From NCBI GenBank assembly GCA_902385625.1, contig CABMGE010000007.1, positions 1,565-65,564 of the forward strand: a stretch of 64,000 nt of DNA. Direction: 5' to 3'. This DNA comes from an uncultured archaeon. GTDB lineage: Archaea; Nanobdellota; Nanobdellia; Pacearchaeales; GW2011-AR1. Made by a program: the position numbers and the translations under genes. Below the pieces are notes generated by a model. It was given only the letters and a program-made list of their open reading frames with translations. It did not search any database and had not been told where the DNA came from. Positions 13,253 to 49,518 of this stretch are shown here, piece after piece (position 1 is the stretch's first letter; each line of letters starts with the position of its first letter).

Positions 13253-14632
13253 CTAGTTTATCCTTGCAAATTTTTTTGTTTTTTCAATATGGTAGATGCA
13301 ATAATCATTATATCGGAAATCTGTTCCATTAGAATCCATTGAACTTTTACAACCGCCCCTGCAATATACTGCGTATTTGCATGACTTGCAATGTTTTACA
13401 AGTTTTTTAGGTTCTCGGTTATATGAAAAAGCTCCTTTTTTTAGCCATAATTCTTTTAATGGAGTTTTTCTAATGTTTCCTTCTACAAATTTATCATTTT
13501 GTATAGGGCATCCCTTTAAATTACCTTCTGCATCTACAGAACAACCTGAAAGTCCTGCTCCACAACCAGTCCAAAAACTATCTCTTAGATTTAGACTACC
13601 ATAATAACCCATACTGTCTCCTACACTAATATTTGTTATTTCTTTTAGCTCCTCTCTATATTTTGCAATCTTTTTACCAAATTCATAAAATTCTTCTTGT
13701 GAGATGGAGTCTGCTTTACTTAAACATCCTACTGGCAGAGCATAATATAGGTTCCAGGAATTTATCCTATTCTTTTTTATAAAATTTTTTACATTATCAA
13801 GATCGTTAAAATTCTTTTTTGTTATAGAAGTTGTTAGTCCAAAAGGTATCTTATATTTTTTGAAAAGATTAATAGTTTTTAATACTGATTTATAGACTCC
13901 TTTTTTATTTCTAAATTCATCATGAACTTTGCCTATTCCATCTAAACTTATATGGACATTAAATGTTTCTAACTTTTTTAATTTTTTAACTATATCCTCA
14001 TTTATTAGTGTGCCGTTAGTTGTTATTCCGATCTCAATTCCCTTTTTTCTTGCATAGGATAATATTTCAAACCAATCTTTTTTTAAAAAAGGCTCTCCTC
14101 CGGAGATATTTATTACAAAAACTTTTAACCTGGCGCAATCGTCAATAAATCTAAAACATTCCTCTTTTGTCATTTCATTTTTTAATTTAGCTCTTGAAGT
14201 GTTTCCGCAATGAGAACATCGAAGATTACAATTATTTGTGATCAACCAGGATATTTGATTAGGCCCTCTTAAGACAGGAGATATTGAATAATGTTCTTTA
14301 AATTTATAGTCTATAGAACCATTTAGCTTCACTAAACCGGTTTTAGACATAAATGATAGATAATTAAGGGCCATAGGAACAAGTAGGGCATAAGGGACCC
14401 GGGTTTCTTTAGACAATTCAAGAAGTATAGATTTTAATTGTTTTTTCCCATCAATCTTATTCAATAATTTAAAACCTATATTATTTATAAGAATTACTTT
14501 TAAGGTCTCGATATCAAAGATTGTATAACCGAAATCTTCAATCCTATATCTAAAATCGTTTTTTTGAGGTATTATATTCCTTAAATCCCCTAACATAGAA
14601 TTTCCAATAAATTCTGAAATCGCAAGAACCAT
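13253..14632 (-). CDS. radical SAM/SPASM-domain enzyme with a ~125-aa N-terminal extension (AlbA-like RiPP-maturase architecture)
   Basis: CNLRCSHC (CxxxCxxC) at about residue 128, a GGEPFL motif, and a C-terminal Cys-rich SPASM region (CGAG...C...CKSCKYAVYCRGGC). Confidence 0.8.
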   Translation of the reverse strand: MVLAISEFIGNSMLGDLRNIIPQKNDFRYRIEDFGYTIFDIETLKVILINNIGFKLLNKIDGKKQLKSILLELSKETRVPYALLVPMALNYLSFMSKTGLVKLNGSIDYKFKEHYSISPVLRGPNQISWLITNNCNLRCSHCGNTSRAKLKNEMTKEECFRFIDDCARLKVFVINISGGEPFLKKDWFEILSYARKKGIEIGITTNGTLINEDIVKKLKKLETFNVHISLDGIGKVHDEFRNKKGVYKSVLKTINLFKKYKIPFGLTTSITKKNFNDLDNVKNFIKKNRINSWNLYYALPVGCLSKADSISQEEFYEFGKKIAKYREELKEITNISVGDSMGYYGSLNLRDSFWTGCGAGLSGCSVDAEGNLKGCPIQNDKFVEGNIRKTPLKELWLKKGAFSYNREPKKLVKHCKSCKYAVYCRGGCKSSMDSNGTDFRYNDYCIYHIEKTKKFARIN

Positions 14633-23093: not shown

Positions 23094-23633
23094 TTATTCT
23101 TTATTCTTTATCTTTTGCATAAGTCCTAGCATACCTTTTAAAATATCCTCGGGTGTTGGAGGATTTCCAGGTATTTTCATATCAACAGGCAAGACCTTTT
23201 CAACTGAGCCTACAACTGCATAACTATCTTTGAATATTCCTGTACCGCATGCATCATCTCCAAGCGCAATTACAAATTTTGGCGATGGAGCTGCTTCATA
23301 AGTCTTTTTTAATGCTTCAAGCATGTTTAAGGCAACAGGACCTGTAACAAGGATTATATCGGCATGACGCGGAGAAGCAACAAAATTTATTCCAAAGCGT
23401 TCTATATCATAATAAGGTGTTGTGAGATTCACAAGTTCAATTTCAGGAGAATTATCGCTTCCAGTGTCAACAAGTCTTATAGAAATACTTTTTCCAAAGA
23501 TTTTATCCACTTCTTTTTTGAGTTTAAGTCCTAATTCTTCAAACTCTTTATCTTTAAATTTAAAACTTTCTGTTTTTCTCTTAAATAGATTTGATATTGG
23601 AATTGCCATTTTATTATAAATCATTTCCCTCAT
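23094..23633 (-). CDS. NuoB/hydrogenase-small-subunit-like protein lacking the Fe-S ligand cysteines
   Basis: SPRHADIILVTGPV and PVDMKIPGNPPTPE align with NuoB. The GxCCxxE, GxCA and PGCPP positions read GSDNS, GDDAC and PGNPP. Confidence 0.65.
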   Translation of the reverse strand: MREMIYNKMAIPISNLFKRKTESFKFKDKEFEELGLKLKKEVDKIFGKSISIRLVDTGSDNSPEIELVNLTTPYYDIERFGINFVASPRHADIILVTGPVALNMLEALKKTYEAAPSPKFVIALGDDACGTGIFKDSYAVVGSVEKVLPVDMKIPGNPPTPEDILKGMLGLMQKIKNKE

Positions 23634-25173
23634 ATGAAAGATTCATGCTTTTGTTTATTAAAGGAAAATCAGGTACAATATTGCCAATAACAGCAGGTTC
23701 AATAGCATACCAATTGCAAAAAGAAGCAGTTCTTATTTTATATCTATCAATTTTTTTATTTTTTATAACTACAAAATGCAAATTTTGTCCTCTGGAAGAC
23801 TCGACAATTGAAAAAGAATATCCGTCAGTTATTTTATAATCAGAAGATATATTTCCGGATGGGATTGAATTTATTACTTCCTTAATTATTCTGGCTGAAT
23901 CTTTTATAGTATCTGCCTTTATTAAAAAACGAGCAAGAACATCTCCTTTGTCCATAACTCTATCTGAAGGTACTATTTTTTCATATAATGCATAGGGATG
24001 CTTTACTCTTACATCGTTATTTATTCCAGAGGCTCTTGCAAGTGGACCGCTAAGATTCATTGGACCAATTAACTCTTTTTTTACAATCCCAGTAGTTTCA
24101 AAACGATCTGATACAAAATAAGAGTTTAGTATGGTATTTACATTTGTTGTAAACTCCTTTGTGAATTTATGAAGATAATCTGATAATTCTTTAAGAACAA
24201 TTGGAGAAACATCACTTGAAACACCGCCAATTTTTAGACTGCCTTTATAAAATCTGGATTTGCTAATAGCTTCATTCCATCTCATTATTTCTTCTCTAAA
24301 TATGAAAAAAGGACTCGAACCAGCTGGATATGCAATATCTACTATCATTCCTGAAAGATCTCCAAGCAAAGAATAGATTCTCTCCATTTCTGCAAATAAA
24401 ACCCTTAGGTGTACTGCTCTTTGCGGCACACGAATCTTGCATATTTTTTCAATTGCATTACAATATGCAAGAGAATTTGCAACACTTTCATCACCGCAAA
24501 TTGATTCTGAAATTAGCAGTCCTTCTTCAGGAGTTTTTCCTTCAGACAATTTTTCAACTCCACGATGTTTCCAAAAATGGCGTATCTCAAGGTTGAAAAT
24601 TGTCTCCCCAATAACACTAAATCTGAAATGACCTGGTGCAATTATTCCTGCATGAACAGGGCCTACGGGTATTTGATAAATTCCTTCTCCTTTTACTTCA
24701 CGAAAAACATATTCTTCTGACTCAGAAATCTTTTTTTTAACTGGTATTTTTGAATTTTTAAATGATTTTAGCAATGGATGGAATTTTTCAGGATAGATTT
24801 CGTGCAAAAATAATCTTCTTGTGTCGCAAGTAGAATCAAAAATTACTCCAAATCCATCTTTTATTTCACGTTCATACAAATAGGCAGTAGGAAATAAAGA
24901 AAATATTGAAATATTTGAGGTTTTAGCATGAGTTTTTACAATTAAAATCTCTTTATATTCTTCATTATCAAAAACATAAAATAAATCAATTCCACGAGAG
25001 TTATCAAAATTGTCAGCAGCAAACATACTGATTAGATTAAATTTTTTATTTTTTAGTGCTTCAACTAACTTGAATACATTTTCTTCAGATATCAAATAAA
25101 TTTCATCTGGATTATTTACAATAGTCTTAATTTTTGTAAATTCTTTTTTTAGTTCGTGAATAAATTTTTCCAT
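23614..25173 (-). CDS. fused NuoC-NuoD / hydrogenase large-subunit-like protein without NiFe ligands
   Basis: NuoC-like N-terminus followed by a NuoD/HycE-like core. The N-terminal RxCGxC motif reads ICGDES, and there is no C-terminal DPCxxC. Confidence 0.7.
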   Translation of the reverse strand: MEKFIHELKKEFTKIKTIVNNPDEIYLISEENVFKLVEALKNKKFNLISMFAADNFDNSRGIDLFYVFDNEEYKEILIVKTHAKTSNISIFSLFPTAYLYEREIKDGFGVIFDSTCDTRRLFLHEIYPEKFHPLLKSFKNSKIPVKKKISESEEYVFREVKGEGIYQIPVGPVHAGIIAPGHFRFSVIGETIFNLEIRHFWKHRGVEKLSEGKTPEEGLLISESICGDESVANSLAYCNAIEKICKIRVPQRAVHLRVLFAEMERIYSLLGDLSGMIVDIAYPAGSSPFFIFREEIMRWNEAISKSRFYKGSLKIGGVSSDVSPIVLKELSDYLHKFTKEFTTNVNTILNSYFVSDRFETTGIVKKELIGPMNLSGPLARASGINNDVRVKHPYALYEKIVPSDRVMDKGDVLARFLIKADTIKDSARIIKEVINSIPSGNISSDYKITDGYSFSIVESSRGQNLHFVVIKNKKIDRYKIRTASFCNWYAIEPAVIGNIVPDFPLINKSMNLSYEGNDL

Positions 25174-25174
25174 A

Positions 25175-26620
25175 TTAATTTCCTGTGAGTTTTAAGGTTA
25201 TAATTTTAAGTAGATTTTGTAGTCCCTGGGGGAAATAAACTCCCAAAATAAATAAAATAACAATTAAAATAATTATTGGAATTTTCATGCTTAAATATAT
25301 TCGGTATTTTTCTATTTTTTCTTTTCCCTGGAATGTAGTTAGATTAATAATAAGCCAGATGAATGATCCTGCAGCAACAAAAAGGAAAAAAAGAACTAAA
25401 AGACATAATAACAATGAACTTTGTGCAAGCGAAGTCAAGATATAAAATTTAGGGAAGAAAATTGGAAAAAGAGGTGTTCCGATTATTGCAATACTTCCAA
25501 TAATTAGTCCAAAACAAGCAAGAGGCTGCAATTTTAAAATATCCTTTATATTTCCGGCTTTCATGCTTCCTGACTGCCTGTGAATAATACCTGCTGAAAA
25601 GAATAATAATGCTTTTACAAGTGCATGTGCTAAAATATAATACAAAACCCAGAACATGTTTCCAAGGGCAATTCCAATGAGCATGAATCCCATATTTTCC
25701 ACACTTGAATAAGCGATTAGTTTTTTCAAATTGGTTCTGACAAGCATGCTTAAGCTTGCAACTGCCACAGTTAGAATTCCGAATATCATCAAAATAATTG
25801 ATGCAGCAGGACCCATGCTAGTTGGAGCAATTAGAACATACATTCGGATTATTGCATAGATACCAATATTTAGTACAACTCCTGAGAGTAATGCGCTAAC
25901 ATCTGAAGCTGCTTTTGAGTGCGATGGAGGAAGCCAGGTGTGGAAAGGAACTATGCCTGATTTTGCAGCAAAGCCAATAAACATGAAAATAAATGAAAAA
26001 AATAACAGTTGCGGAGAGATCTGCTGAGATATTGAAAACAATACATCCCAATTCAGGGTTGAAACTCCATTAACACTTTTACTTGCAGCAAAAAGAAAAA
26101 TAAGTCCAATAAATGAAAATAGCATTGCTGTAGAGGTTATAAAAACATATTTCATTGCTGCGACAATATTTTCCTTTGCATTAAGTGTTACAATAAGAGT
26201 TGCTGAAAGTATTGTAGTTATTTCTGCAAATATCCATAATAGAGCCAAATTATTTGAACTAAATACCAGAACCATGCTAAACAATAAAAAATTATAACTT
26301 AGGTAAAACAATTTTATATTTGTCTTATTAAATTCTTTTTCATGTATAAGGGATTTTATATATCCCTCTGCATAAATTGCAGCGAGTAAGAAAATTATTC
26401 CTGCGATTAAAATCTCATAAATACTAAATGCATCAAGCATCAGATAATTGTTTTTTAATACTGAAATAGGTAAATTAAATCTCAAAAGTAAATATGAATA
26501 TATCAGGATAATACTTAATGAATGAAGCACGGTTACATAATTCATTGTCTTACGAGACCTCGAAAATAATACTATTAAGGACACTGCCAAGAGTATAATT
26601 ATTATAATTGCAAGTATCAT
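25175..26620 (-). CDS. NuoN/MrpD/HyfF-like antiporter-type membrane subunit
   Basis: About 14 TM helices with the characteristic central conserved region. Confidence 0.7.
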   Translation of the reverse strand: MILAIIIIILLAVSLIVLFSRSRKTMNYVTVLHSLSIILIYSYLLLRFNLPISVLKNNYLMLDAFSIYEILIAGIIFLLAAIYAEGYIKSLIHEKEFNKTNIKLFYLSYNFLLFSMVLVFSSNNLALLWIFAEITTILSATLIVTLNAKENIVAAMKYVFITSTAMLFSFIGLIFLFAASKSVNGVSTLNWDVLFSISQQISPQLLFFSFIFMFIGFAAKSGIVPFHTWLPPSHSKAASDVSALLSGVVLNIGIYAIIRMYVLIAPTSMGPAASIILMIFGILTVAVASLSMLVRTNLKKLIAYSSVENMGFMLIGIALGNMFWVLYYILAHALVKALLFFSAGIIHRQSGSMKAGNIKDILKLQPLACFGLIIGSIAIIGTPLFPIFFPKFYILTSLAQSSLLLCLLVLFFLFVAAGSFIWLIINLTTFQGKEKIEKYRIYLSMKIPIIILIVILFILGVYFPQGLQNLLKIITLKLTGN

Positions 26621-27303
26621 TTTTTAGCCCTCCTATTAAACCAATTATGGAAAGGATTTAATTTTTTATGGAATTCTTCCATAGATGAATCCATACCAAA
26701 GCCCAGTATGCAAGTAATTGCAACTAAAACTAGCAGGTCCATAAGAACCATCATTTCAATTAAAAGAGGCATCTCTCCAATAAAAAGGCTTAAGAGCACA
26801 ACTCCATTTTCCATAACTAAATACCCAATTATTTTAACTATTATTTTTCTTCTACTAAAAATAATCATAAATCCAATCATTACAAGAGAAAATCCAATTA
26901 TAACTCCAAAATAATAAAGTGAACTAAGCCCTAAATAATCTTTTATTTTTGAGAAAATAAAAAAACTGAAAATAATTATTAGCAGACTAACAAATATAGA
27001 TGATACTGGTTTTAGATAATGATATTCTATATCTGTAAATATTTTCATATGCCATTTGGTCCATCTCAGTAATATTGGAATAAGGACTGACTTGGAAATT
27101 ATTGTAAGGGCTGCTGCAAATAAGAAGGTATAGTTTCCTTCAGATAAAAAAAACAAGATCGCAATAAACGAAAGTACAAGTGAGTGCAAAGAATAAACAT
27201 TTATTAAAGAGACTAAATTCCTTCGAGAAATAATAATTGTTGTAAGTATTACTAGCAGTACAAGTGATATTTTTAACAATTCATCGATTAAAACAGGATT
27301 CAT
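26617..27303 (-). CDS. HyfE-like small membrane subunit
   Basis: Polytopic 228-aa protein at the position HyfE occupies in hyf operon order. Confidence 0.5.
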   Translation of the reverse strand: MNPVLIDELLKISLVLLVILTTIIISRRNLVSLINVYSLHSLVLSFIAILFFLSEGNYTFLFAAALTIISKSVLIPILLRWTKWHMKIFTDIEYHYLKPVSSIFVSLLIIIFSFFIFSKIKDYLGLSSLYYFGVIIGFSLVMIGFMIIFSRRKIIVKIIGYLVMENGVVLLSLFIGEMPLLIEMMVLMDLLVLVAITCILGFGMDSSMEEFHKKLNPFHNWFNRRAKK

Positions 27304-28232
27304 AGCAACATCTCCATCATAAGTGTAATTAACGAAAGTAAAAAAGCTATTGCAAAAATGATTGGAAGCCTAAATAACCTGGATTTTGCAATAAATGATT
27401 CTATTATTCCAATGCTTATTGCAAGAATTATACTTTTAATTAAAAAGGCAATTAAAGAGGTTCCAATTCCGATAAGAGATAAAGGCAGATTAAATCCTAT
27501 TGGAAAAAATAGATTAATAATTATTGCCATAAGTAATACTTGTTTTACTCCTGAAGATAATTCCATTAGTGCAAGATTTTTTCCTGACTGCTCAAGAATC
27601 ATTGCTTCATGAACCATTGTAAGTTCCAGATGTGTTTCAGGATTATCAATAGGTATTCTTGCAGTCTCAGTTAAAAGAACAATTATAAGCGGAATTAAGA
27701 GTAACCACAAAGAAGCATGAACAAGGCCTACTGATGTAGCCCCAAATATTTCAAAAAAATTGACACTGTTATAAACAAATGCCAGAGTTGCAAAAATTAT
27801 TATTACTATTGGCTCAATTATTGATGAGATACTCATTTCTCTTGAACTTCCCATTCCACCAAAAGTACTTCCTGCATCAAGACCAGCAAGAGCCATAAAA
27901 AACTTGGCAAGAGCTAGAATATAGAGGAAAAGTATTATATTACCAAAGCCAAAATAATTATCAGGTATAAATAGCAGAGGTACAAATAATATTGCAACTA
28001 TACTGCAGATAATATTAATATAAGGAGCTACCCTCATTATAAAAGAGGAGTTAGTTGAATAAATACTCTCTTTTTTGAAGAGTTTTAATAAATTATAATA
28101 TGCCTGAAATAATTTCGGGCCTTTTCTTCCTTGAAATAATGCCTTGACTTTTTTTATGAGTGATATATAAAAAGGAGCCAGGATAAGAACCACTAGTATA
28201 TTGACTATTGCAAATAAAAAAAAGCTAATCAT
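27300..28232 (-). CDS. NuoH/HyfC-like membrane subunit
   Basis: About 8 TM helices with NuoH-like loops. Confidence 0.7.
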   Translation of the reverse strand: MISFFLFAIVNILVVLILAPFYISLIKKVKALFQGRKGPKLFQAYYNLLKLFKKESIYSTNSSFIMRVAPYINIICSIVAILFVPLLFIPDNYFGFGNIILFLYILALAKFFMALAGLDAGSTFGGMGSSREMSISSIIEPIVIIIFATLAFVYNSVNFFEIFGATSVGLVHASLWLLLIPLIIVLLTETARIPIDNPETHLELTMVHEAMILEQSGKNLALMELSSGVKQVLLMAIIINLFFPIGFNLPLSLIGIGTSLIAFLIKSIILAISIGIIESFIAKSRLFRLPIIFAIAFLLSLITLMMEMLL

Positions 28233-30175
28233 CTTATAACCACCCCTACAATTATGAGTAATGCCAAAATAGTCAAGAAAATATATAAAATAAATGAATC
28301 TAAATCAATTTTATTCTGTATTTTGTATAGTTTTTCTGAAATATAGTGAACCATTTTTAGTGGTGGAAGATATAAGTATTCCTCGAAAAATTTAATTAAA
28401 CTTAAACTTGCTTGACCCTCTTTAAATATAACTCCTTTTGAATCATAAAATGTAGGCTTATTTATTTTTTTTGGTTGATAAATACTTGAAAAAATTGTAA
28501 CAATAGGTTCAGAAAATCCAGATGCAGTATATTCCATTTTGCTATTCTGCGAATTTATACCACAACCCCATGTTTCACTTACACGTGAATGTTTATTCCC
28601 AATGTTTCTTATAATTAGGTAAGCAATAACCCCAATTATAAATGTTCCAATTGAAATCCATAATAAATTAGGCAGATCAAAAGAAACTCCTGCTTTCTCT
28701 CCAATAAAATTTAAGATCTGGAATGAAAATACACCAATAACCATGCAAAGTATTGCAAGTATAGCCGGACCAACTAACATAAATTTGTCTGCTTCTTTTG
28801 CTTCTTTTGCTTCTTTTGAACGTGGAACAGCTAAAAAAACAATTCCAAATGCTTTTACAAAACATGCTGCCGCAAGAGCACTTGTAAGTGCGAATAATGA
28901 CATAGAAATCATTAAAATTAGTTTAATTAATGGCGAAGATATAGAATTTGATTTGAAAAATACCTGGAATATCATTAGTTCACTTACAAATCCATTGAAA
29001 GGTGGAAGTGCGCTAATTGAAATTGCTCCAATTAAAAATAATAAAGAGGTATATTTCATATTTTTTACAAGTCCACCCATTTTTTCTATATTTTTTGTAT
29101 GAGTAGCATTGACAACAGAACCAGCAGTCATGAAAAGCAAGCTTTTGAATAAAGAATGATTAAATGCATGAAAGAGTCCAGCAAAAAGTGCTACCAGGGC
29201 AATAGCTGGAAGAGAATAATAAGTAAATATCATGTACAAACCAATGCTTATTAGAATTATTCCAATATTTTCTATGCTACTATATGCAAGTAATCGTTTA
29301 AGATCTTGTTCTTTTAAAGCATAGATTATTCCAAGTAATGCAGAAATAGTTCCAAAAATTAGAATTGCAATTCCCCACCATAATTGCTGCTGTGAAATAA
29401 TGAAAAGAAATCTTATAAGGCCATAAATTGCGACTTTTATCATGACTCCTGACATTAATGCTGAAATTGAGGAAGGACTTGCAGGATGAGCATATGAAAG
29501 CCATTTATGAAAAGGAACCATTCCAGCTTTAGTTCCAAATCCAATAGCTAGAGTAATAAACAAAATTGAGGAAAGAAAAGGAGAAAGGGAAGTATTTGTA
29601 AAATCAAGAGTGCCTGTGTTGATATAGATTAAAATAAATGAGAAAATAAGGAAAATAGTACCTAATTGAGTCATCACAAAATAAAATATTCCTGCTTTTT
29701 TTGTTTCTTCTTTTTCATAATCAAAAAGCACGAGTAAAAATGAAGAAATAGACATAAGTTCCCAGAAGAATAAAAATCCAAGAAGATTATGTGAAATTAC
29801 AACAAACATCATAGATAATATAAAAAGAGCCATAAGAGAGACTAAAAAATTCCTTTTTTTCACACTTTCAAAATGTTCCGCATATGAAATAGAGTATATA
29901 GAAACGCAAAATCCAACTATGCTTATGATTATTATAAAAAAAGCAGCCAGAGAATCAATAAGCATTGAAAAAGCTGTTCCAGATACAAAAATTTGAAAAC
30001 TAATGTCTTTTCCTAAAAGGACTTGTAAAGAGAGAAATATTGAGATAAGGCAGGCAAGCATGATGAGTATAAGAGAGATCTTTCTCAGAGAAGAATGTTT
30101 CAGTTTGAGTCCAATTAAGGGAATAACAATTGAAAGTAATAATATCAAGAACACAGCTGTAATTAATAATACCAT
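28229..30175 (-). CDS. NuoL/MrpA/HyfB-like antiporter-type membrane subunit
   Basis: 648-aa polytopic protein of the NuoL family. It contains an in-frame KEAKEAKEA 9-bp repeat at 28791-28817. Confidence 0.75.
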   Translation of the reverse strand: MVLLITAVFLILLLSIVIPLIGLKLKHSSLRKISLILIMLACLISIFLSLQVLLGKDISFQIFVSGTAFSMLIDSLAAFFIIIISIVGFCVSIYSISYAEHFESVKKRNFLVSLMALFILSMMFVVISHNLLGFLFFWELMSISSFLLVLFDYEKEETKKAGIFYFVMTQLGTIFLIFSFILIYINTGTLDFTNTSLSPFLSSILFITLAIGFGTKAGMVPFHKWLSYAHPASPSSISALMSGVMIKVAIYGLIRFLFIISQQQLWWGIAILIFGTISALLGIIYALKEQDLKRLLAYSSIENIGIILISIGLYMIFTYYSLPAIALVALFAGLFHAFNHSLFKSLLFMTAGSVVNATHTKNIEKMGGLVKNMKYTSLLFLIGAISISALPPFNGFVSELMIFQVFFKSNSISSPLIKLILMISMSLFALTSALAAACFVKAFGIVFLAVPRSKEAKEAKEADKFMLVGPAILAILCMVIGVFSFQILNFIGEKAGVSFDLPNLLWISIGTFIIGVIAYLIIRNIGNKHSRVSETWGCGINSQNSKMEYTASGFSEPIVTIFSSIYQPKKINKPTFYDSKGVIFKEGQASLSLIKFFEEYLYLPPLKMVHYISEKLYKIQNKIDLDSFILYIFLTILALLIIVGVVIR

Positions 30176-34059: not shown

Positions 34060-34247
34060 TTCTCCTAAATTAATAATTAAATCAATATATGGAAAAGCAG
34101 ATATTTGTCCAGATAGTTTATACTTTTTCTGCAAAAACCTGATAGTTGTCAATTAAAAAACTACTAGATTTTATATATTTTATTCTCTATAATATATGCA
34201 TTATTTTTATTTAGATTTTTATTTTCAAGCTTAGAATCGCGGATTAA

Positions 34248-34380
34248 TTGTCTGTTAAAAACTACAATATTTTATATATTTCTTTTACTTAAAAGATATA
34301 TCTTCTTGGTAAGTTTTTTTTGCGTTATAAATTCCAGATGTGACTTCTTAAATGATTACCAAGAAAATTCTAAATAGACA
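34248..34380 (+). promoter_or_regulatory. leader-repeat copy U0 (promoter plus conserved 5' leader, no downstream CDS)
   Basis: Shares the aaaactacaatattttatatatttc TATA region and the cttggtaa...ttaccaagaaaattctaaata leader, then diverges and encodes only a 6-codon ORF. Confidence 0.45.
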
Positions 34381-34481
34381 TATGGGAGTAATTAAGATAT
34401 AAACACTGCCATTTAATCTACTCGCGGCAGTTCGCAATTGATACTCCCTATGCGTCAAAAGCCGAGATAAAAAGTTTTGGA

Positions 34482-34527
34482 TTGGGTTGCTGTAATTTGC
34501 ATTTTAACCTCAAGGGAAGCAACCCAA
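34482..34527 (+). terminator. GGGTTGC hairpin H0
   Basis: ttgggttgct paired with agcaacccaa, a 26-nt loop, followed by a T-rich run. Confidence 0.4.
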
Positions 34528-34576
34528 TTTTAATTTAAAGAATTATATTTCATATAAAGTATAAAAAAAGTTAAAA

Positions 34577-34743
34577 ATTGTCTTCTTAAAAACTACAATA
34601 TTTTATATATTTCATTTCATTATATAATACATCTTCTTGGTACCTTAAGTTATTCTTTTATCAATTTTAGATTTGACTTCTTTTAAGCTGTTACTTCTCT
34701 AGATTACCAAGAAAATTCTAAATAAACACACAGGAGGTAAAAA
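34577..34743 (+). promoter_or_regulatory. leader-repeat U1 (promoter, conserved 5' UTR with inverted repeat, strong SD)
   Basis: Conserved block ending ...aaataaacacacaggaggtaaaaaATG. Confidence 0.5.
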
Positions 34744-35193
34744 ATGAGAACTGAAATTTTATCAATGGTTCTACTTGCAAGTATACTACTTATGAGTGTA
34801 CTTGGCACTAGTATGATATCTGCTCTAGGAACTAGTGACTATAACGTAGGGGTTGGTGGCGCAGGTGCTCCTAGTTATTCTAGCGAGTCTGTGCAAAGTG
34901 CTAGTCAACAAAGTACAAGCATTGCAAGTCAACCAATGCAAAGTCCATATGAGGGCAGTCAACCTATGGAAAATCCATGTGATCAAGGAATGCAGCAAAC
35001 CCCTAATCAAGGAGTTCAACTGAGTCCTAATCAAGGAATTCAAATGAGTCCTAATTTAGGAGTTGGACAGCAAAGTCCTTATGATTCAGGAATGCAACAG
35101 AGTCCTTATGATCAGGGTATGAATGGTGCTTCTAGTCAAACTACCAGCAGCACATACTACTCTTATTCTAGTCAAAGCCAAAGCGCTTATTAG
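34744..35193 (+). CDS. secreted S/Q/P/Y-rich low-complexity protein (array paralog 1)
   Basis: Signal peptide MRTEILSMVLLASILLMSVLG shared with the other paralogs. The mature part carries repeated QSPYD/QGMQ units. Confidence 0.55.
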   Translation: MRTEILSMVLLASILLMSVLGTSMISALGTSDYNVGVGGAGAPSYSSESVQSASQQSTSIASQPMQSPYEGSQPMENPCDQGMQQTPNQGVQLSPNQGIQMSPNLGVGQQSPYDSGMQQSPYDQGMNGASSQTTSSTYYSYSSQSQSAY

Positions 35194-35210
35194 ATAAGTG
35201 GCTGATTTAA

Positions 35211-35263
35211 TGGGTTGCTGTAATTTGCATTTTAACATAAAAAAGCAACCCAATTTTAATTTA
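35211..35263 (+). terminator. GGGTTGC hairpin H1
   Basis: tgggttgct paired with agcaaccca, with a loop nearly identical to H0. Confidence 0.4.
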
Positions 35264-35371
35264 AAAAATATATCTTATAGGAAGTATAAAATAGATAGAA
35301 AGTTATTTTCAAGTGAAGTGAATTCATCAAAAATAATAAGATTTTTATTTAGACAGAATGATTATAATCGA

Positions 35372-35521
35372 ATTGTCTTCTTAAAAACTACTCTATTTTA
35401 TATATTTCATTTCATTATATAATACATCTTCTTGGTAAGTTTTCCGTTATAAAATTTTTAGATTTGACTTCTTTTATGCATTACCAAGAAAATTCTAAAT
35501 AAACACACAGGAGGTAAAAAA
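35372..35521 (+). promoter_or_regulatory. leader-repeat U2
   Basis: Conserved block as in U1. Confidence 0.5.
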
Positions 35522-35734
35522 ATGAGAATTGTAAATTTTTCAATATTATTACTTGCAAGTCTACTTGCGATAGGTTCAATAAACATTGCAAGTGTTTCTG
35601 CAGGATATAATTATGGAAACTATGGACATGGAGGCTATGGAGGACATGGTTATTATCCGGGTCATTATGGAGGATATGGACATGGAGGCTATGGAGGACA
35701 TGGCTATAGTGGTTATGGACACGGTTATAGATAA
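35522..35734 (+). CDS. secreted Gly/Tyr/His-rich peptide (array paralog 2)
   Basis: Shared signal peptide; the mature sequence is GYNYGNYGHGGYGGHGYYPGHYGGYGHGGYGGHGYSGYGHGYR. Confidence 0.55.
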   Translation: MRIVNFSILLLASLLAIGSINIASVSAGYNYGNYGHGGYGGHGYYPGHYGGYGHGGYGGHGYSGYGHGYR

Positions 35735-35763
35735 AAAGAGAATAATAGTTTCCTTAATTCTAA

Positions 35764-35809
35764 AATTAAGCTGTATGAAAAATATTTTTTTATATAATGC
35801 AGCTTAATT
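35764..35809 (+). terminator. alternative hairpin after paralog 2
   Basis: aattaagctgtat paired with atgcagcttaatt (12/13 bp) around an AT-rich loop. Confidence 0.35.
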
Positions 35810-35870
35810 TTTAAAAATCATTATATTCATTGGCTTAAAGATTCTTGGTAAAAGTTTTTTCTTTAGGAGA

Positions 35871-35934
35871 TTAACTTTTTTTAAGCCATTTTTTAGACAT
35901 CAAGAAAAATTAAATAAACACAGGAGGTAAAAAA
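35871..35934 (+). promoter_or_regulatory. leader-repeat U3 (diverged; retains ...caagaaaaattaaataaacacaggaggtaaaaaaATG)
   Basis: Partial similarity to U1, U2 and U4. Confidence 0.4.
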
Positions 35935-36222
35935 ATGAGAACTGCAATTTTTTCACTAGTGTTACTTACAAGCATACTGCTACTAGGTACATTTGGCATT
36001 AGCATAGTTTCTGCATATCCTTATGGAGGAATGCATAGCGGATGGGGAGGAATGCATGGTGGCTGGGGCGGACATGGTTTCGGTGATCGAGATGACTTTA
36101 GATTTAGATCATTTGGATTTAGGCCGTCCTTTGATCGCGACGACTTTAGATTTAGATCATTTGGATTTAACCCATTCTTTGATCGAGATGACTTTGCATA
36201 CAGACCTTATTGGGGTTGGTAA
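35935..36222 (+). CDS. secreted Gly/Trp/His plus DRDDFRFRSFGF-repeat peptide (array paralog 3)
   Basis: Shared signal peptide and a 48-nt internal tandem repeat (about 2.5 copies). Confidence 0.55.
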   Translation: MRTAIFSLVLLTSILLLGTFGISIVSAYPYGGMHSGWGGMHGGWGGHGFGDRDDFRFRSFGFRPSFDRDDFRFRSFGFNPFFDRDDFAYRPYWGW

Positions 36223-36285
36223 TATTAATCCCACAAACCAGGTTAGTATATAATTAACTAGTTGATTAAACCTAATTGGGTTGTT

Positions 36286-36318
36286 ATTTTAATTCATTTA
36301 AGATTTGAGCAACCCAAA
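36286..36318 (+). terminator. GGGTTGC hairpin H3
   Basis: ttgggttg paired with caacccaa around a 26-nt loop. Confidence 0.4.
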
Positions 36319-36380
36319 TTTATATTTTAGAACTCGCAAGTTTTTACAAAAGCATAATACTTTATCAAATAAAGTAATAA

Positions 36381-36529
36381 ATTGTCTTCTTAAAAACTAC
36401 AATATTTTATATATTTCATTTTCTTATATAATACATCTTCTTGGTAAGTTTTCCGTTATAAAATTTTAGATTTGACTTCTTTTAGGTATTACCAAGAAAA
36501 TTCTAAATAAACACACAGGAGGTAAAAAA
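36381..36529 (+). promoter_or_regulatory. leader-repeat U4
   Basis: Conserved block as in U1 and U2. Confidence 0.5.
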
Positions 36530-36769
36530 ATGAGAGCTGCAATTTTTTCAATAGTGCTACTTGCAAGCATATTAATGCTTGGAACATTAAGTGTTGCCAT
36601 GGTTTCTGCTTGGGGAGTATCTTCATATGGAATGTATGGTGGTTATTATCCTTACAGCGGTCTTTATTACAATAATTTCTACAGACCATATGCATGGGGT
36701 AGTTTCTATCGACCATATTATTATAGCAACTTCTATCGCCCATGGGGATGGAATATGTATGGATGGTAG
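36530..36769 (+). CDS. secreted Tyr/Trp/Gly-rich FYRPY-repeat peptide (array paralog 4)
   Basis: Shared signal peptide and three 9-aa FYRPYxxxx repeats. Confidence 0.55.
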   Translation: MRAAIFSIVLLASILMLGTLSVAMVSAWGVSSYGMYGGYYPYSGLYYNNFYRPYAWGSFYRPYYYSNFYRPWGWNMYGW

Positions 36770-36907
36770 TATGCCCAATACAATGATGTAAGAACTTTTC
36801 AAAGATAGTTTTAATCTATCTTGAGGTATATATTTTATACTTTCGTATAAAATAGGTAAAAATTACTATCTAAAATGTCATTTTTTACGAAGTAAAAAAT
36901 TATCTTA

Positions 36908-36950
36908 TTGGGTTGCAAGCCTAGTTTGTTTTAAATTTAAAGCAACCCAA
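36908..36950 (+). terminator. GGGTTGC hairpin H4
   Basis: ttgggttgc paired with gcaacccaa around a 25-nt loop. Confidence 0.4.
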
Positions 36951-36973
36951 ATTTATATTTTAGCAAACCAGGA

Positions 36974-37216
36974 CTAGAACATTCCTTTTATTTTTTCTAA
37001 AACAGATCTTTCTTTTTTTCTTCTCATCCCGTTTATTATTTCAGAAGTAACTGCTCCGGCTATTGCGCCTACTGCAGCAGCGATTATAATTGAGGCATAG
37101 GGATGTTCTTTTATTACATCTTCTGTTTTTTCCTTTACATCACTTAGTCTTTCTTCTGAAGAATTCCAAATATCCTTTGCTTTTTCTTTTAATCCCCTGT
37201 TTTTTTTAGCTGGCAT
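36974..37216 (-). CDS. ElaB/YqjD-like (DUF883-like) small C-terminally anchored protein
   Basis: Charged N-terminus followed by EHPYASIIIAAAVGAIAGAV, a C-terminal TM segment. Confidence 0.35.
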   Translation of the reverse strand: MPAKKNRGLKEKAKDIWNSSEERLSDVKEKTEDVIKEHPYASIIIAAAVGAIAGAVTSEIINGMRRKKERSVLEKIKGMF

Positions 37217-37237
37217 TTTATATATTTATCCTCCCTT

Positions 37238-37525
37238 TTAAACTAATTTTACAATGATTCCAATGATTAGGAACATTATACCCATTATTAAAAATGAAAC
37301 TGATTTACCCAAATGAACATATTCAATTAAGAAAAAAACTGCAGATAAAACCAAAAATAAAATCGAAATAAATATTATAAGAATAGCAATCAGTTCTTTT
37401 ATTATCTGTCTTTTTATTTTATTAATTCTTATTTCAATATTTCTGCATAACTCTTCTTCGAGTTGCTTTAAAAATCTTTGAACACTTGTTGAAAGGCTTT
37501 CTTTGATGTAATCTAGTATTCCCAT
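37238..37525 (-). CDS. small two-TM membrane protein (YqjE-like?)
   Basis: 95 aa, with a 4-nt gap... adjacent to the ElaB-like gene. Confidence 0.3.
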   Translation of the reverse strand: MGILDYIKESLSTSVQRFLKQLEEELCRNIEIRINKIKRQIIKELIAILIIFISILFLVLSAVFFLIEYVHLGKSVSFLIMGIMFLIIGIIVKLV

Positions 37526-37656
37526 TGTTAATTTAATGATTGTCTAATTTTTAAACATCCCTGTTTACTAAAATATATTAATATAATATAGAGATTGGAG
37601 TAATGTTATTGTTAATATTCTTTTTAGATTTATATAAATAATTTGTCTTGTTTTAT

Positions 37657-37707
37657 ACAACAAAGATTTAAATTAAATTTTTAATGTATAATTTTATACA
37701 TGAATGT
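37657..37707 (+). repeat. conserved intergenic module Y, copy 2
   Basis: ttaatgtataattttatacatgaatgtataaaatt. Confidence 0.55.
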
Positions 37708-37716
37708 ATAAAATTA

Positions 37717-37746
37717 GATGTGATAACTATTTTATTCGAAATCAAT
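37717..37746 (+). repeat. conserved intergenic module Z, copy 2
   Basis: ctattttattcgaaatcaattcgcctaaaa. Confidence 0.5.
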
Positions 37747-37805
37747 TCGCCTAAAATAGATATTCTCTAGTATTTTTTATATTTTATGTTGACTTCAATC
37801 TTAAA

Positions 37806-38018
37806 ATGGCAAAATATGGAAAAGCTGCTCAAAAAAGTGTAAAAAAAGCAGTACATAAATACAAGAAAGGAAAATTGAAAAGTGGAAAAAGTGGGAAAAA
37901 AGTTAAGAATCGAAAACAAGCTGTTGCAATTGGTCTTTCTGAGGCAAGAAAAAAAGGTGCAAAAGTTCCAACTAAGAAATATATGTCTTTTTTAAATATA
38001 TTTTCTTTTAATCGTTAA
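37806..38018 (+). CDS. small lysine-rich basic protein
   Basis: MAKYGKAAQKSVKKAVHKYKKGKLKSGKSGKKVKNRKQAVAIGLSEARKKGAKVP. Conserved modules Y and Z lie upstream. Confidence 0.35.
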   Translation: MAKYGKAAQKSVKKAVHKYKKGKLKSGKSGKKVKNRKQAVAIGLSEARKKGAKVPTKKYMSFLNIFSFNR

Positions 38019-39612: not shown

Positions 39613-40107
39613 TTAATCGTCATCATTTCTAGATCTGGTTGGAGGGCTTTGTTTTATTGAAGATGTTTTATTCCCAATTTCTGAAACAGTTAGATTTGTA
39701 TTTAAATCTCCAATAAAATAAGCATCAAGAAGAGAATTTGCATTTGCTGAATGAGGACTTCCGCGATTTCCCTTAGTATCATATAATTCAGTTGCATCTT
39801 TTCCACAGCCTGAAACTATTGTTGAGTAACCTCCGGGATGAGAACCAATATATGAGGTTATATCATAAACTTTATTGTTAATAATCATCCAGCAATCAGT
39901 TGCTTTGTTATGTTTTTCTATTTCTTGCAATGTTAAACCTATTGTATCTGATAAACTTCCATTTTCCTGAATCTGAGATCCTGGCCTGGAGATTAAATTT
40001 GAGGAATTATTTTTATTGGCTATTAAAAAACCGGTAATAAAGAGTGCCACTAAAAAAGCCCAGGCGATAAAAATTCCTGTATAAAAAATTGCTTTTGTTA
40101 GTTTCAT
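39613..40107 (-). CDS. membrane-anchored cytochrome b5-like heme-binding protein
   Basis: HNKATDCWMIINNKVYDIT...HPGG motif. Its start overlaps the next gene by 4 nt. Confidence 0.6.
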   Translation of the reverse strand: MKLTKAIFYTGIFIAWAFLVALFITGFLIANKNNSSNLISRPGSQIQENGSLSDTIGLTLQEIEKHNKATDCWMIINNKVYDITSYIGSHPGGYSTIVSGCGKDATELYDTKGNRGSPHSANANSLLDAYFIGDLNTNLTVSEIGNKTSSIKQSPPTRSRNDDD

Positions 40108-41420
40108 AATCCAAATTCCTCAGTTATTATATTTTTCTTATTTATTCCAAATGAGATTAATTGTTTTTTAATTGAATTCATCATATTTGGAGGACCACAT
40201 ATAAAAATTTTGCTGTTACTTAAGTATTTGGAGTTATTCTTTATATATTCTAAATTTAAAAGGCCGCTTTTTTCAGATATAAACGGATAAATGTTTAATT
40301 TTTTAGTTTTTGAAATTTTATTTGAGATTTCTTTTAATTCTTTTAAAAATACGCATTCTTTTTCAGTTTTTACAGAATAATACAGATCGATATTATCCCC
40401 ATCAAAAGAACCTGGGCTGTCATCAATTGACCGAATCATTGAAATAAAGGGGGTAATCCCTATTCCCCCTGAAATAAAAATGTAATTGTTTGAATGATGA
40501 TTAACAAATGAGAATTTTCCAAATGGACCTTCCAGTTTTACTTTACTTCCCACTTTTACATTCTTAAGGTTTGCAGTATAGTCTCCAAGATCTTTTATTG
40601 AAAAAATAATATCTTTTTTATTTGGAGAAGAGCAGATTGTAAATGGATGAGGCTCGTTTGTAGTTATATCTGACTCAATTGACAAGAATGCAAATTGACC
40701 TGGAATATAATTAAGAGGTTTATCTTTTGTTTCAAGAGTTATTTCGGTTAGATTTCCAATTTGTTTTATTGATTTTACAGTGTATTCGTATCTCTTCACG
40801 AATTTTTTCCAAAAAAGAGTTCTGTATGAAAAAGAACCGATTCCGATTATAATAAATAAAACCATGTAACTTTTAAGAAAAATACTTCGAGAAACATCGC
40901 TTGAAATTAATAATACATGAAGACTTGCAAGAATATATGAAAATCCAAGAAGCTTGTGGTTAAATTTCCAGGTTTGGTATTTGAATTTTGAAATAAATGT
41001 CAGGATCAAAAATAATTCCATTGAAAACAATGCAAAATTTCCAAGTGTTATTGCTAAATTACTGATCTGCAGAAGAAACTTTGCAGCAACAACTATTGAA
41101 CTTGTTATAAACTGGCTTGCTAAAAATAGCGGATGAAAAAGCAGAAGCAAGAAAGATATAATTCCTATATTGTGATGGGCTTTGTAAGTCTTATCAAGTC
41201 CAAAAAACAATTTTTCTGTAAATTTTAATCTTGTATTTAATAATAAAGTTATAGAAAACAAAACCATTCCACAAAGACCTAAAATTTTTCCAATACTTCT
41301 CATTGAATTTGAAAAATTGGAAAATGATACAGAGTCACCAGGGAAAATCAGTAAATAGAGTACTGGAATTATTGCAAGAATAAATACCCATAGATACCCT
41401 GTTTTTTTAAAGAAATCCAT
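40104..41420 (-). CDS. ferric-reductase/NOX-family transmembrane flavocytochrome (FAD/NAD-binding)
   Basis: His-containing TM domain, HPFTICSSP (FAD-binding motif) and GGIGITPFISMI (NAD-binding motif). Confidence 0.65.
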   Translation of the reverse strand: MDFFKKTGYLWVFILAIIPVLYLLIFPGDSVSFSNFSNSMRSIGKILGLCGMVLFSITLLLNTRLKFTEKLFFGLDKTYKAHHNIGIISFLLLLFHPLFLASQFITSSIVVAAKFLLQISNLAITLGNFALFSMELFLILTFISKFKYQTWKFNHKLLGFSYILASLHVLLISSDVSRSIFLKSYMVLFIIIGIGSFSYRTLFWKKFVKRYEYTVKSIKQIGNLTEITLETKDKPLNYIPGQFAFLSIESDITTNEPHPFTICSSPNKKDIIFSIKDLGDYTANLKNVKVGSKVKLEGPFGKFSFVNHHSNNYIFISGGIGITPFISMIRSIDDSPGSFDGDNIDLYYSVKTEKECVFLKELKEISNKISKTKKLNIYPFISEKSGLLNLEYIKNNSKYLSNSKIFICGPPNMMNSIKKQLISFGINKKNIITEEFGL

Positions 41421-49365: not shown

Positions 49366-49518
49366 TGAAATCAAAAATTTCAATTACAGTTGACAAAGAA
49401 ATTCTGGATTTAATTGAAAATCTTACTGAATCTGGAAGATTTAGGAACAGAAGCCATGTTATTGAATATAGTATTAAGAAGTTTGTGAATGAAAACAACA
49501 AGGAGGAAGTAAAATGAT
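49366..49518 (+). CDS. unannotated 50-aa ribbon-helix-helix (CopG-like) protein
   Basis: MKSKISITVDKEILDLIENLTESGRFRNRSHVIEYSIKKF follows the beta-alpha-alpha RHH pattern. Its end overlaps the first kinase start (ATGA). Confidence 0.5.

Follow-up and report, generated by a model that had tools for sequence, protein, structure and literature searches.

Tandem expression units for small, predicted-secreted, low-complexity peptides in an uncultured archaeon

Secreted adhesives and antimicrobial peptides rich in glycine and aromatic residues are known in animals and plants, and the pairing of a conserved signal sequence with a divergent mature part is known in eukaryotes. Mfp-3 of mussels is a small (~5-7 kDa) secreted adhesive rich in Gly, Tyr, Asn, Arg and Trp, which forms a multi-variant family behind a signal peptide and depends for its function on the hydroxylation of Tyr to 3,4-dihydroxyphenylalanine (DOPA) and on Lys and Arg. 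The squid beak proteins HBP-1 and HBP-2 are secreted, disordered and rich in Gly, His and Tyr, and four tandem copies of their GHGLY repeat, or five of GHGxY, suffice for the pH-triggered coacervation of 20-25-mers (PMC6884462). The peptide shepherin I (GYGGHGGHGGH...) binds Zn(II) and Cu(II) and forms Zn-induced antifungal fibrils (PMC10698721). In tandem or clustered eukaryotic peptide families, the signal sequence and sometimes the 5' untranslated region (UTR) are conserved well beyond the mature part (PMC4558851, PMC7900195, PMC13128954, PMC9122587). No described counterpart was found in the literature on archaeal, DPANN or other prokaryotic equivalents. Here we describe an array of four genes, P1 to P4, that encode low-complexity peptides behind predicted signal sequences in the DNA of an uncultured archaeon (contig CABMGE010000007.1); the whole stretch that was analysed, 64 kb in length, is referred to as the window.

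The four open reading frames (ORFs) lie on the forward strand exactly where an earlier note on this DNA had placed them (Table 1). Each belongs to a unit (U1 to U4) whose parts are a promoter with a B recognition element (BRE) and a TATA-like box, a long 5' leader with a predicted stem, the Shine-Dalgarno (SD) sequence AGGAGGT, a signal peptide, a mature peptide and a 3' hairpin. A fifth unit, U0, lacks an ORF. The alignment of the units and the counts of their motifs bear out the earlier proposal that the genes are tandem paralogues which share a module of promoter, leader and signal and are followed by a 3' hairpin. As a structural and genetic description, we are highly confident that the array is a tandem paralogous family of complete expression units for small, predicted-secreted, low-complexity peptides.

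Motifs, leader and hairpin were counted over the 64-kb window, and statements that a sequence occurs only in the array refer to that stretch. A BRE/TATA-like 22-mer (AAAACTACAATATTTTATATAT) has five matches with three mismatches or fewer (0.02 expected), a 24-mer (ACCAAGAAAATTCTAAATAAACAC) has four (0 expected), the block that joins the SD sequence to the start codon (ACAGGAGGTAAAAAAATG) has four, and the hairpin GGGTTG..CAACCC has four (0.01 expected). All of these matches are located in the array, and for each upstream-block motif and for the hairpin the observed count was reached in 0 of 100 shuffles. Within the window, the shared block is thus specific to the array, as had been supposed, and is not a ubiquitous promoter. 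The same block of ~150 nt had been assigned to every gene; this is correct for P1, P2 and P4, but P3 has kept no more of it than stem arms, spacer and SD-ATG part. The canonical promoter block of P3 has diverged and its TATA-like box (~35785-35798), which differs from that of the other units, is contained in the loop and 3' arm of the hairpin that follows P2.

The TATA motifs of the array are found 106-147 nt upstream of the ATG codons. Strict TATA motifs before other ORFs of the window cluster 21-40 nt before the ATG (5 of 10 occurrences, which are small numbers), a spacing that fits mostly leaderless or short-leader mRNAs, and the array leaders, with a length of ~80-115 nt, are therefore unusually long. 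Their sequence follows the order TTCTTGGTAA..TTACCAAGAA..AGGAGGTAAAAAAATG, in which the first two elements form an inverted repeat that brackets the leader and is predicted to pair as a stem of 9-10 bp in five of five units. Comparison of the diverged leaders reveals identities of 42-59% in the loop, 70-100% in the stem arms and 100% in the SD-ATG block. The U3 leader illustrates the pattern: its SD-ATG block is identical to those of U2 and U4 at 19 of 19 positions and its loop is ~42% identical, and its stem carries a G-C to G-U change, the only stem change in the array that still pairs, and one terminal A-U to A-C change that is broken. For the pair P2 and P4, the 60 nt upstream of the genes are 97% identical and the signal-coding DNA is 69% identical; the expression module is either more constrained than the protein or homogenised by gene conversion.

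The SD sequence is perfect in all four genes and is positioned 7-8 nt before the ATG. In a scan of 55 ORFs of the window with an ATG start and a length of 120 aa or more, P1 among them, GGAGGT was found before a single ORF and any SD-like core before 15, which agrees with the strong SD sequence that the earlier note had emphasised.

The 3' hairpins have folding energies of -13.6 to -18.6 kcal/mol (z = -2.3 to -4.35) and carry T-rich tails on the forward-strand side only. A GGGTTGC..GCAACCC hairpin had been reported after most units, and this stands, the hairpin of P2 being different in sequence. The hairpins may serve as terminators or stabilisers at the RNA level. In the long 3' UTR of P4 (36826-36893), two small AT-rich putative hairpins, TTTTATAC-TTTC-GTATAAAA and TTTTTTAC-GAA-GTAAAAAA, were seen by eye before the GGGTTGC hairpin.

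U0 had been described as a leader and hairpin without a peptide, and it is a decayed copy of a complete unit. It aligns with U1 across the promoter and leader and again at the hairpin, which is nearly identical to that of U1. The SD sequence is degraded, the ATG has become ATA and ~400 nt of coding sequence are deleted, leaving a remnant of the signal-coding part. A promoter-only copy with two mismatches to the BRE/TATA block of the array is present upstream of U0, and is probably the remnant of a further unit.

Substrates of Sec and signal peptidase I have a positively charged n-region, an h-region of ~10-20 residues and small residues at positions -3 and -1. The N-termini of all four peptides display this tripartite arrangement, with 27 residues each, an MR start, a hydrophobic core of ~18-20 residues and [V/I]-S-A at positions 25-27. 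For P3 and P4, AlphaFold2 in single-sequence mode predicts an N-terminal helix from residue 2 to ~30, with block means of the predicted local distance difference test (pLDDT) of ~94-97 over the first 20 residues. These features point to secretion and to cleavage after position 27. The shared signal peptide of the earlier note stands, but the consensus given for it fits P3 and P4 best, and P1 (MRTEILSMVLLASILLMS) and P2 (MRIVNFSILLLASLLAIG) deviate. In a six-frame translation of the window, the signal core [VLI]LL[AT]S[IL]L is found in these four genes only. The signal-coding sequences of P3 and P4 differ at 9, 1 and 8 sites in codon positions 1, 2 and 3; the sparing of position 2 is the mark of selection for a hydrophobic segment, and it confirms that this frame is translated. 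Archaeal type IV pilins and other class III signals have a charged N-terminus that ends in [KR]-G or A before the h-region and is cleaved there. No [KR]G motif precedes the h-region in the array peptides (MRTAIFS..), and a class III signal was rejected.

The conserved N-terminus with a variable core and the imperfect inverted repeat at the end of each unit are also features of two other kinds of system. The peptides could be precursors of ribosomally synthesised and post-translationally modified peptides (RiPPs), with a leader that is recognised by a maturase, or the units could be integron-like mobile cassettes with the hairpins as recombination sites. Both possibilities are largely refuted here and are very remote. 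RiPP precursors have a non-secretory leader, a co-located maturase (radical S-adenosylmethionine (SAM)/SPASM, LanM or YcaO) and, usually, a clustered exporter or protease. The array peptides instead start with a canonical hydrophobic Sec signal, and no maturase gene is adjacent: the sole radical SAM/SPASM gene of the window, a possible peptide maturase (13253-14632, reverse strand), is on the opposite strand at a distance of ~20 kb, and the genes in the interval are unrelated. Integron cassettes are promoterless ORFs with attC sites (R''/L''..L'/R', GTTRRRY core), accompanied by an intI tyrosine recombinase and attI/Pc. Here, each unit has its own BRE/TATA promoter, the arms GGGTTGC/GCAACCC do not contain the GTTRRRY core, and the orientation of the hairpins and their T-tails fit the 3' ends of forward-strand transcripts. 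An integrase or recombinase was not found in the window, whose annotated ORFs contain no integrase domain, and the genes flanking the array include no recombinase, exporter, immunity gene or peptide-modifying enzyme. There was likewise no blastn similarity to plasmids or phages and no similarity to viral contigs. The word cassette, which had been applied to the units in the sense of exchangeable or mobile elements, is thus not sustained.

The predicted mature peptides have masses of 4.5-12.7 kDa and pI values of 4.05, 8.2, 7.0 and 9.2 for P1 to P4, and the repeat motifs attributed to them (QSPY[DE], G[YH]G/GHGxY, DRDDF and FYRP[YW]) were all located. Mature P1 is acidic and rich in Ser, Gln, Gly and Pro, with three copies each of QSPY[DE] and [ST]PN[QL]G. 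Mature P2 (GYNYGNYGHGGYGGHGY...) contains 46.5% Gly, 28% Tyr and 14% His (6 of 43 residues) in GHGxY/GYGGH repeats, with three GHG.Y and three GHGY motifs. P3 has a block rich in Gly, Trp, His and Met, followed by 2.3 copies of a 48-nt (16-aa) unit, DRDDFRFRSFGF, and contains DRDDF three times. P4 contains 29% Tyr and 10% Trp, and FYRP[YW] three times.

The composition departs strongly from that of the other proteins. Lys, Ile, Glu, Leu and Val together account for 1.2% of mature P2-P4 and 10.7% of mature P1 versus 41.7% of the window proteins, and Lys is absent from all 285 mature residues versus a background of 9.2%. Gly, Tyr, Trp, His, Phe, Arg and Pro make up 79% of P2-P4 versus a background of 25%. 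The peptides have one Cys in total and no Cys motifs. The mature-coding sequences have a GC content of 38-45% versus 30% for the window; the composition thus opposes the AT mutational bias, which argues for selection on composition. In the AlphaFold2 models of P3 and P4, the mature part is mostly below ~50 pLDDT, with 10-residue block means of 41-61, which is consistent with intrinsically disordered mature peptides.

The mature regions had been called unrelated, which does not apply to P2, P3 and P4. The best local DNA matches among these three genes are all in frame and located shortly past the cleavage site, where the peptides share weak similarity with common motifs that include HGG[YW]GGHG (25 nt, 84% identity, z = 3.0), GM[HY]GG and GYYP. 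The internal tandem repeats differ from gene to gene and represent separate expansions, such as the 48-nt unit (2.3 copies, 87% identity) and a 24-nt unit (93% identity). The history of the family looks like duplication of a Gly/aromatic-rich ancestor and slippage-driven divergence, and not like insertion of foreign cassettes. Whole units would duplicate in tandem with conservation of the promoter, leader, ribosome-binding and signal parts, and the mature parts would diverge by slippage-type amplification of different short repeats.

Mature regions dominated by recent internal repeats, together with a unit that is already a pseudogene, a promoter-only fragment and searches that returned no homologues, could also be expected of young orphan ORFs with little or no function, in which a duplicated promoter, leader and signal module drives slippage junk that decays as U0 did. 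We consider this distinctly improbable. All four genes are intact, with equal signal length, the cleavage motif and hydrophobicity-preserving substitutions, and their composition runs strongly against the AT bias, with no Lys or Ile-type codons and a GC content of 38-45%. Even the diverged U3 has an SD-ATG block with 100% conservation, and an unrelated GC-rich organism has an array of analogous layout, as described below.

Table 1. Positions of the array features in the window.
Feature	Position	Strand	Details
Promoter-only partial copy	34133..34184	+	BRE/TATA-like AAAACTACTAGATTTTATATAT at 34157-34178; no leader or ORF behind
U0, decayed unit	34245..34543	+	BRE/TATA 34258-34279; stem arms 34303-34312, 34356-34365; hairpin 34484-34525
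U1 promoter and 5' leader	34576..34743	+	BRE/TATA 34589-34610; stem arms 34634-34643, 34704-34713; GGAGGT 34733-34738
P1 gene, 149 aa	34744..35193	+	predicted signal peptide 34744-34824 (27 aa, ..ISA); mature 122 aa
U1 3' hairpin GGGTTGC..GCAACCC, T-rich tract after	35212..35251	+	-14.9 kcal/mol, z = -2.6
U2 promoter and 5' leader	35371..35521	+	BRE/TATA 35384-35405; stem arms 35429-35438, 35481-35490; GGAGGT 35510-35515
P2 gene, 70 aa	35522..35734	+	predicted signal peptide 35522-35602; mature 43 aa
P2 3' hairpin, arms AAAATTAAGCTGTAT / ATGCAGCTTAATTTT	35762..35811	+	-15.5 kcal/mol, z = -4.35
U3 5' leader, diverged copy	35834..35934	+	stem arms 35842-35849, 35899-35906; GGAGGT 35923-35928
P3 gene, 95 aa, VVB77830.1	35935..36222	+	predicted signal peptide 35935-36015; mature 68 aa
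U3 3' hairpin GGGTTGT..GCAACCC, T-rich tract after	36278..36315	+	-15.6 kcal/mol, z = -4.1
U4 promoter and 5' leader	36380..36529	+	BRE/TATA 36393-36414; stem arms 36438-36447, 36489-36498; GGAGGT 36518-36523
P4 gene, 79 aa, VVB77831.1	36530..36769	+	predicted signal peptide 36530-36610; mature 52 aa
U4 3' hairpin GGGTTGC..GCAACCC, T-rich tract after	36910..36948	+	-13.6 kcal/mol, z = -2.3; 140 nt past P4 stop codon

By analogy with the adhesives of animals, the peptides may be abundant, extracellular and self-associating components of an adhesive, matrix or coat, plausibly used in attachment to surfaces or partners. This is a tentative reading, to which we give somewhat less than an even chance; abundance, self-association and the adhesive or matrix role are each inferred. 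Transcription would start ~25 nt after the first TATA, which would place the 5' arm of the leader stem at the mRNA 5' end as a 5'-terminal stabiliser. With a strong promoter, this 5' stem, a rare perfect SD sequence and a 3' hairpin, the units would be of high output, and Sec and signal peptidase I would export the small disordered peptides in bulk. Tyr, Trp and Phe stickers, Gly, Ser and Asn spacers, the presence of Arg, Asp and His, the lack of Lys and the near lack of aliphatic residues would together provide the chemistry of a self-associating material. Cohesion would arise from aromatic stacking, cation-pi interactions, His-Tyr contacts and possibly metal bridges, giving an adhesive, cement, matrix or surface coat that could fasten the cell to surfaces or to the cells of a partner or host.

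The closest described systems resemble individual members of the array. P2 shares with the squid beak proteins the predicted secretion and disorder, the Gly/His/Tyr-rich composition and the GHGxY-type repeats. By contrast, the squid proteins are from an animal, have a mass of ~15 kDa and contain additional GAGFA/GHGLH modules, and no sequence homology was detected; the x position of GHGxY in P2 is Gly or Tyr, not Leu, Val or Pro, and the likeness is compositional. P2 and P4 are similar to Mfp-3 as small, predicted-secreted peptides of a multi-variant family, P4 also in composition, but the array peptides lack Lys altogether and there is no evident tyrosinase. Against the Mfp-3 family (PF04202), P2 scores E = 0.033 and 15 bits, below the gathering threshold of 22 bits, and P1, P3 and P4 give no match; membership of this family was rejected and the P2 match regarded as compositional. 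The pattern of conserved signal and divergent mature part is the same in conopeptides, frog-skin antimicrobial peptides, mussel MgCRP-I and the vertebrate SCPP cluster. These families have exon-structured genes and mostly Cys-rich, folded mature peptides, whereas the array is archaeal, has its own promoter and putative terminator in each unit and encodes low-complexity repeats without Cys motifs.

P2 (GYNYGNYGHGGYGGHGY...) is also close to the Gly/His-rich antimicrobial peptides, namely shepherins I and II as well as armadillidins; like shepherin I, it is a short Gly/His/Tyr peptide that is predicted to be secreted and to lack regular structure. Together with the tandem arrangement of conserved signals and divergent mature parts, which is a hallmark of gene families for antimicrobial peptides and toxins (PMC4558851, PMC7900195, PMC13128954), the likeness to shepherin I (PMC10698721) and the mildly basic nature of P2 and P4 raise the possibility of antimicrobial or competition peptides. 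Such peptides would act on the membrane or wall of competitors or the host in the manner of eukaryotic glycine-rich antimicrobial peptides, and would have diversified in an arms race. However, the peptides are non-amphipathic and contain no Lys and 1-9 Arg, with P3 neutral and P1 acidic. The shepherin likeness is compositional: the Tyr content of P2 is far higher, P1, P3 and P4 are dissimilar, and shepherins arise by cleavage of a polyprotein precursor in plants. No antimicrobial peptide family was matched in Pfam or NCBIfam, an immunity gene or transporter was not found nearby, and the strong expression signals suit a bulk material better than a toxin. An antimicrobial role is thus unlikely, and the evidence favours an adhesive or structural one. 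Class II bacteriocins and archaeocins are recognised by a leader of the double-glycine or Sec kind, by linkage to an immunity gene, a dedicated ABC exporter or both, and by a cationic amphipathic mature peptide. They were rejected as a match, given the lack of adjacent immunity or ABC genes and the non-amphipathic, Lys-free peptides with pI values of 4.05-9.19.

As the earlier note had supposed, the peptides match no described family. Searches of Pfam, NCBIfam and PHROGs with all four peptides gave nothing above threshold, and a PDB sequence search with mature P2 and P3 gave no match. In Rfam, neither the 5' leader nor the 3' hairpin had a match at E <= 1 in 34100-37000 on both strands, and a scan of the whole window at the gathering score returned only a tRNA. 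A word-indexed search of 5.8 billion proteins with P3 found P3 itself and one other protein, of 100 aa (P0002), and an exhaustive phmmer search of 1.84 billion representatives with P3 found the same two and two spurious eukaryotic repeat proteins. A profile of the four peptides retrieved P3 and P4 themselves from the 5.8 billion proteins, together with non-significant compositional matches (E = 0.09-6). The DNA pattern of leader, SD sequence and start had no match in the GTDB representative genomes or in the JGI metagenomes, and the back-translated signal peptide gave no confirmed relative in metagenomes and viral contigs. A second strain or close relative of the array was found in none of the collections searched.

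P0002 has a signal peptide followed by WGGQGGWGG..HGF..(F)DRDDF x3..HWGW, and is collinear with mature P3. The Smith-Waterman score of the pair is 138 versus 52.7 +/- 10 for 2000 shuffles (z = 8.5, a value inflated by the internal repeats), and the E-values of 1.3e-3 in the search of 5.8 billion proteins and 4.2e-4 in phmmer provide modest support. A provisional type, "WGG-FDRDDF-WGW", can be defined by a signal peptide, a W/G block, at least three [F]DRDDF repeats and a C-terminal WGW; P3 and P0002 have all four features, and P1, P2 and P4 do not. The gene of P0002 occupies 455-757 of a 2575-bp contig of 56% GC (Logan SRR31761932; L001) with CofE, bacterial-type PanD and NUDIX neighbours, and its source is probably a bacterium unrelated to the host of the array. 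Directly upstream, at 1-174, is the 3' end of another ORF rich in Trp, Gly, His, Asp and Phe. A conserved block of ~80 nt with a GC hairpin (AAAGGCGCGGC..GCCGCGCCTTT; -28.3 and -23.9 kcal/mol) follows both ORFs. The organisation of this locus is the same as in the array, with at least two tandem paralogous genes for predicted-secreted aromatic/Gly-rich peptides and a conserved hairpin 3' of each. Between the two loci, signal peptides and hairpins are unrelated in sequence, and P0002 has His-rich spacers where P3 has RFRSFGF spacers. The likeness, a single instance, may reflect distant homology, horizontal transfer or convergence.

It is a doubtful but wider proposal that both loci belong to an unrecognised class of prokaryotic extracellular materials present in both domains, in which dedicated high-output units with a structured 5' leader, a perfect SD sequence, a Sec signal and a 3' hairpin would export tandem families of very small, Lys-free aromatic/Gly sticker peptides in bulk; these would phase-separate or assemble, perhaps upon pH or metal triggers, and in DPANN symbionts could act as a glue to the host. 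If such a class is real, gene callers and homology searches would miss its genes systematically, as the ORFs are short and of low complexity. The locus in the GC-rich organism hints that arrays of short low-complexity secreted peptides may be under-annotated in general.

Related tracts were seen in larger proteins. In two bacterial PEGA-domain proteins (P0011 and P0012) the signal peptide is immediately followed by a long (G-Y-G-H-G)n tract, and a metal-resistance protein of the Spy/CpxP/ZraP type (P0010; PF13801, PF07813) has the tract GYGMGYGPGYG..GGYGHG in the same position. GYGHG-type tracts may be a recurrent envelope module. Here the tract is attached to a folded domain (LTXXQ/Metal_resist or PEGA), whereas the array products consist entirely of the low-complexity peptide.

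The His content of some members raises the question of metal binding, that is, of extracellular or pseudo-periplasmic peptides that buffer, scavenge or detoxify Zn, Ni, Cu or Fe. P2 has six His in 43 residues, P3 has GMH/GHG motifs and nine Asp, and P0002 and the ORF next to it carry HHH and HHHH tracts. P0010, a weak profile match, is of a heavy-metal-resistance type, shepherin I binds Zn(II) and Cu(II) (PMC10698721), and an ArsP-type permease and a ferric-reductase/cytochrome b5 pair are encoded near the array. However, P1 and P4 are devoid of His, none of the peptides has a Cys motif, and His is not conserved between P3 and P0002, where Arg or Ser of P3 aligns with His of P0002; metal binding is therefore not family-wide. 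The nearby metal-related genes are on the other strand at a distance of 3-5 kb. As the role of the family, metal binding is quite unlikely.

The window has a GC content of 30.4%, and its proteins, P3 and P4 among them, are deposited as products of an "uncultured archaeon" on a contig of 91.5 kb; every protein checked is a singleton cluster. The genes of the window are of a chromosomal kind and serve housekeeping and energy metabolism, among them those for ribosomal protein L10e, phosphoribosyl pyrophosphate synthase, HtpX, RecQ, a group-4 [NiFe]-hydrogenase/Mrp-like cluster, three Ser/Thr kinases and glycosyltransferases. For the NuoL-like subunit, a protein with 65% identity was found in a metagenome-assembled genome labelled Candidatus Woesearchaeota, which has no array. 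The AI-2E transporter encoded beside the array has no relative above 40% identity; the best, at 35-40%, are on archaeal contigs of 29-33% GC, several of them from 0.1-um-filtered groundwater. These findings indicate an anaerobic, deeply branching host, probably DPANN/Woesearchaeota-like, without close sequenced relatives. The best explanation of the array units is that they are lineage-specific and chromosomal in an uncultured archaeon of ~30% GC.

In a probable DPANN-like archaeon, small predicted-secreted products of a lineage-specific, fast-diverging family could act as diffusible signals or effectors on a partner or host cell, for example in the dialogue of an episymbiont with its host, rather than as a material, and the window contains the three Ser/Thr kinases and other signalling genes. 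Low-complexity repeats of 43-122 aa are unlike known prokaryotic signalling peptides, however, no receptor or processing genes are adjacent, and the very strong translation signals argue for stoichiometric amounts, not for catalytic or signalling ones. Such a signalling role is improbable.

Several observations weigh against the favoured description and function. P1 is an outlier: Ser/Gln/Pro-rich and acidic, with 7% aromatic residues, it fits poorly with peptides built on aromatic stickers. The squid beak and mussel resemblances are compositional, and the family is known from one contig only. The leader stem shows no compensatory double changes, and whole leaders fold no better than shuffles (z = -0.8 to +1.4); in the absence of covariation and with such folding, the identity of the leaders could partly be due to gene conversion or recent duplication. 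Given also the lack of an Rfam match, the stem is best described as a conserved inverted repeat with a presumed role at the RNA level. The hairpin loops of 20-28 nt and the T3-T4 tracts are weak for classical terminators. Finally, the DPANN assignment depends on one protein of 65% identity and on AI-2E relatives of 35-40%.

The secretome of uncultured DPANN-like archaea and the way in which they stick to partners and surfaces are little known, and the locus is a compact candidate for both. At 43-122 aa, the mature products are within reach of chemical synthesis. Should they indeed assemble into a condensate or glue outside the cell, the biology of the mussel foot and the squid beak would extend to archaea, and the array would offer a minimal set of sequences for the design of biomaterials. 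In addition, promoter, structured leader, SD sequence and signal make up a conserved module that is a candidate cassette for high-level secretion in AT-rich archaea.

Flanking the array are a 49-aa ORF and genes for an unknown protein of 313 aa, a DUF883 protein, a transmembrane protein of 95 aa, a DUF6496 protein and the AI-2E transporter. In the region just 3' of the array (36974-38018), the DUF883/ElaB-like membrane protein (80 aa) and the 95-aa transmembrane protein are convergent with the array, and the very basic DUF6496 protein (70 aa) is on the array strand; all three small genes are located between the array and the AI-2E gene. On the contigs with the nearest AI-2E relatives (L008-L014), no low-complexity secreted peptides are encoded at the position equivalent to the array. 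One of these contigs (L008:10949-17472), and the equivalent regions of L011 and L013, instead carry small pilin-like ORFs with class III signals (MNEKRGQELSIGT.., MVTKRGFELPW..) and a pilus-type operon with a T2SSE ATPase, with a prepilin peptidase (Peptidase_A24) on the other side of the AI-2E gene.

Elsewhere in the window, a group-4 membrane-bound [NiFe]-hydrogenase/Mrp-antiporter-like cluster (23094-30175, reverse strand) encodes a fused 30 kDa/49 kDa/NiFe large subunit, a "hydrogenase membrane subunit" (NF006427, above cutoff) and the NuoL-like subunit, which is annotated FpoL; such energy-conserving machinery would be notable if the host is truly of the DPANN type. Three consecutive large genes for Ser/Thr protein kinases (608, 580 and 849 aa) are located at 49514-55603 on the forward strand. 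A cytochrome b5-like heme-binding protein is encoded beside a ferric-reductase/NOX-like flavoprotein (Ferric_reduct, FAD_binding_8, NAD_binding) at 39613-41420 on the reverse strand, a pairing that is unusual for an apparently anaerobic archaeon.

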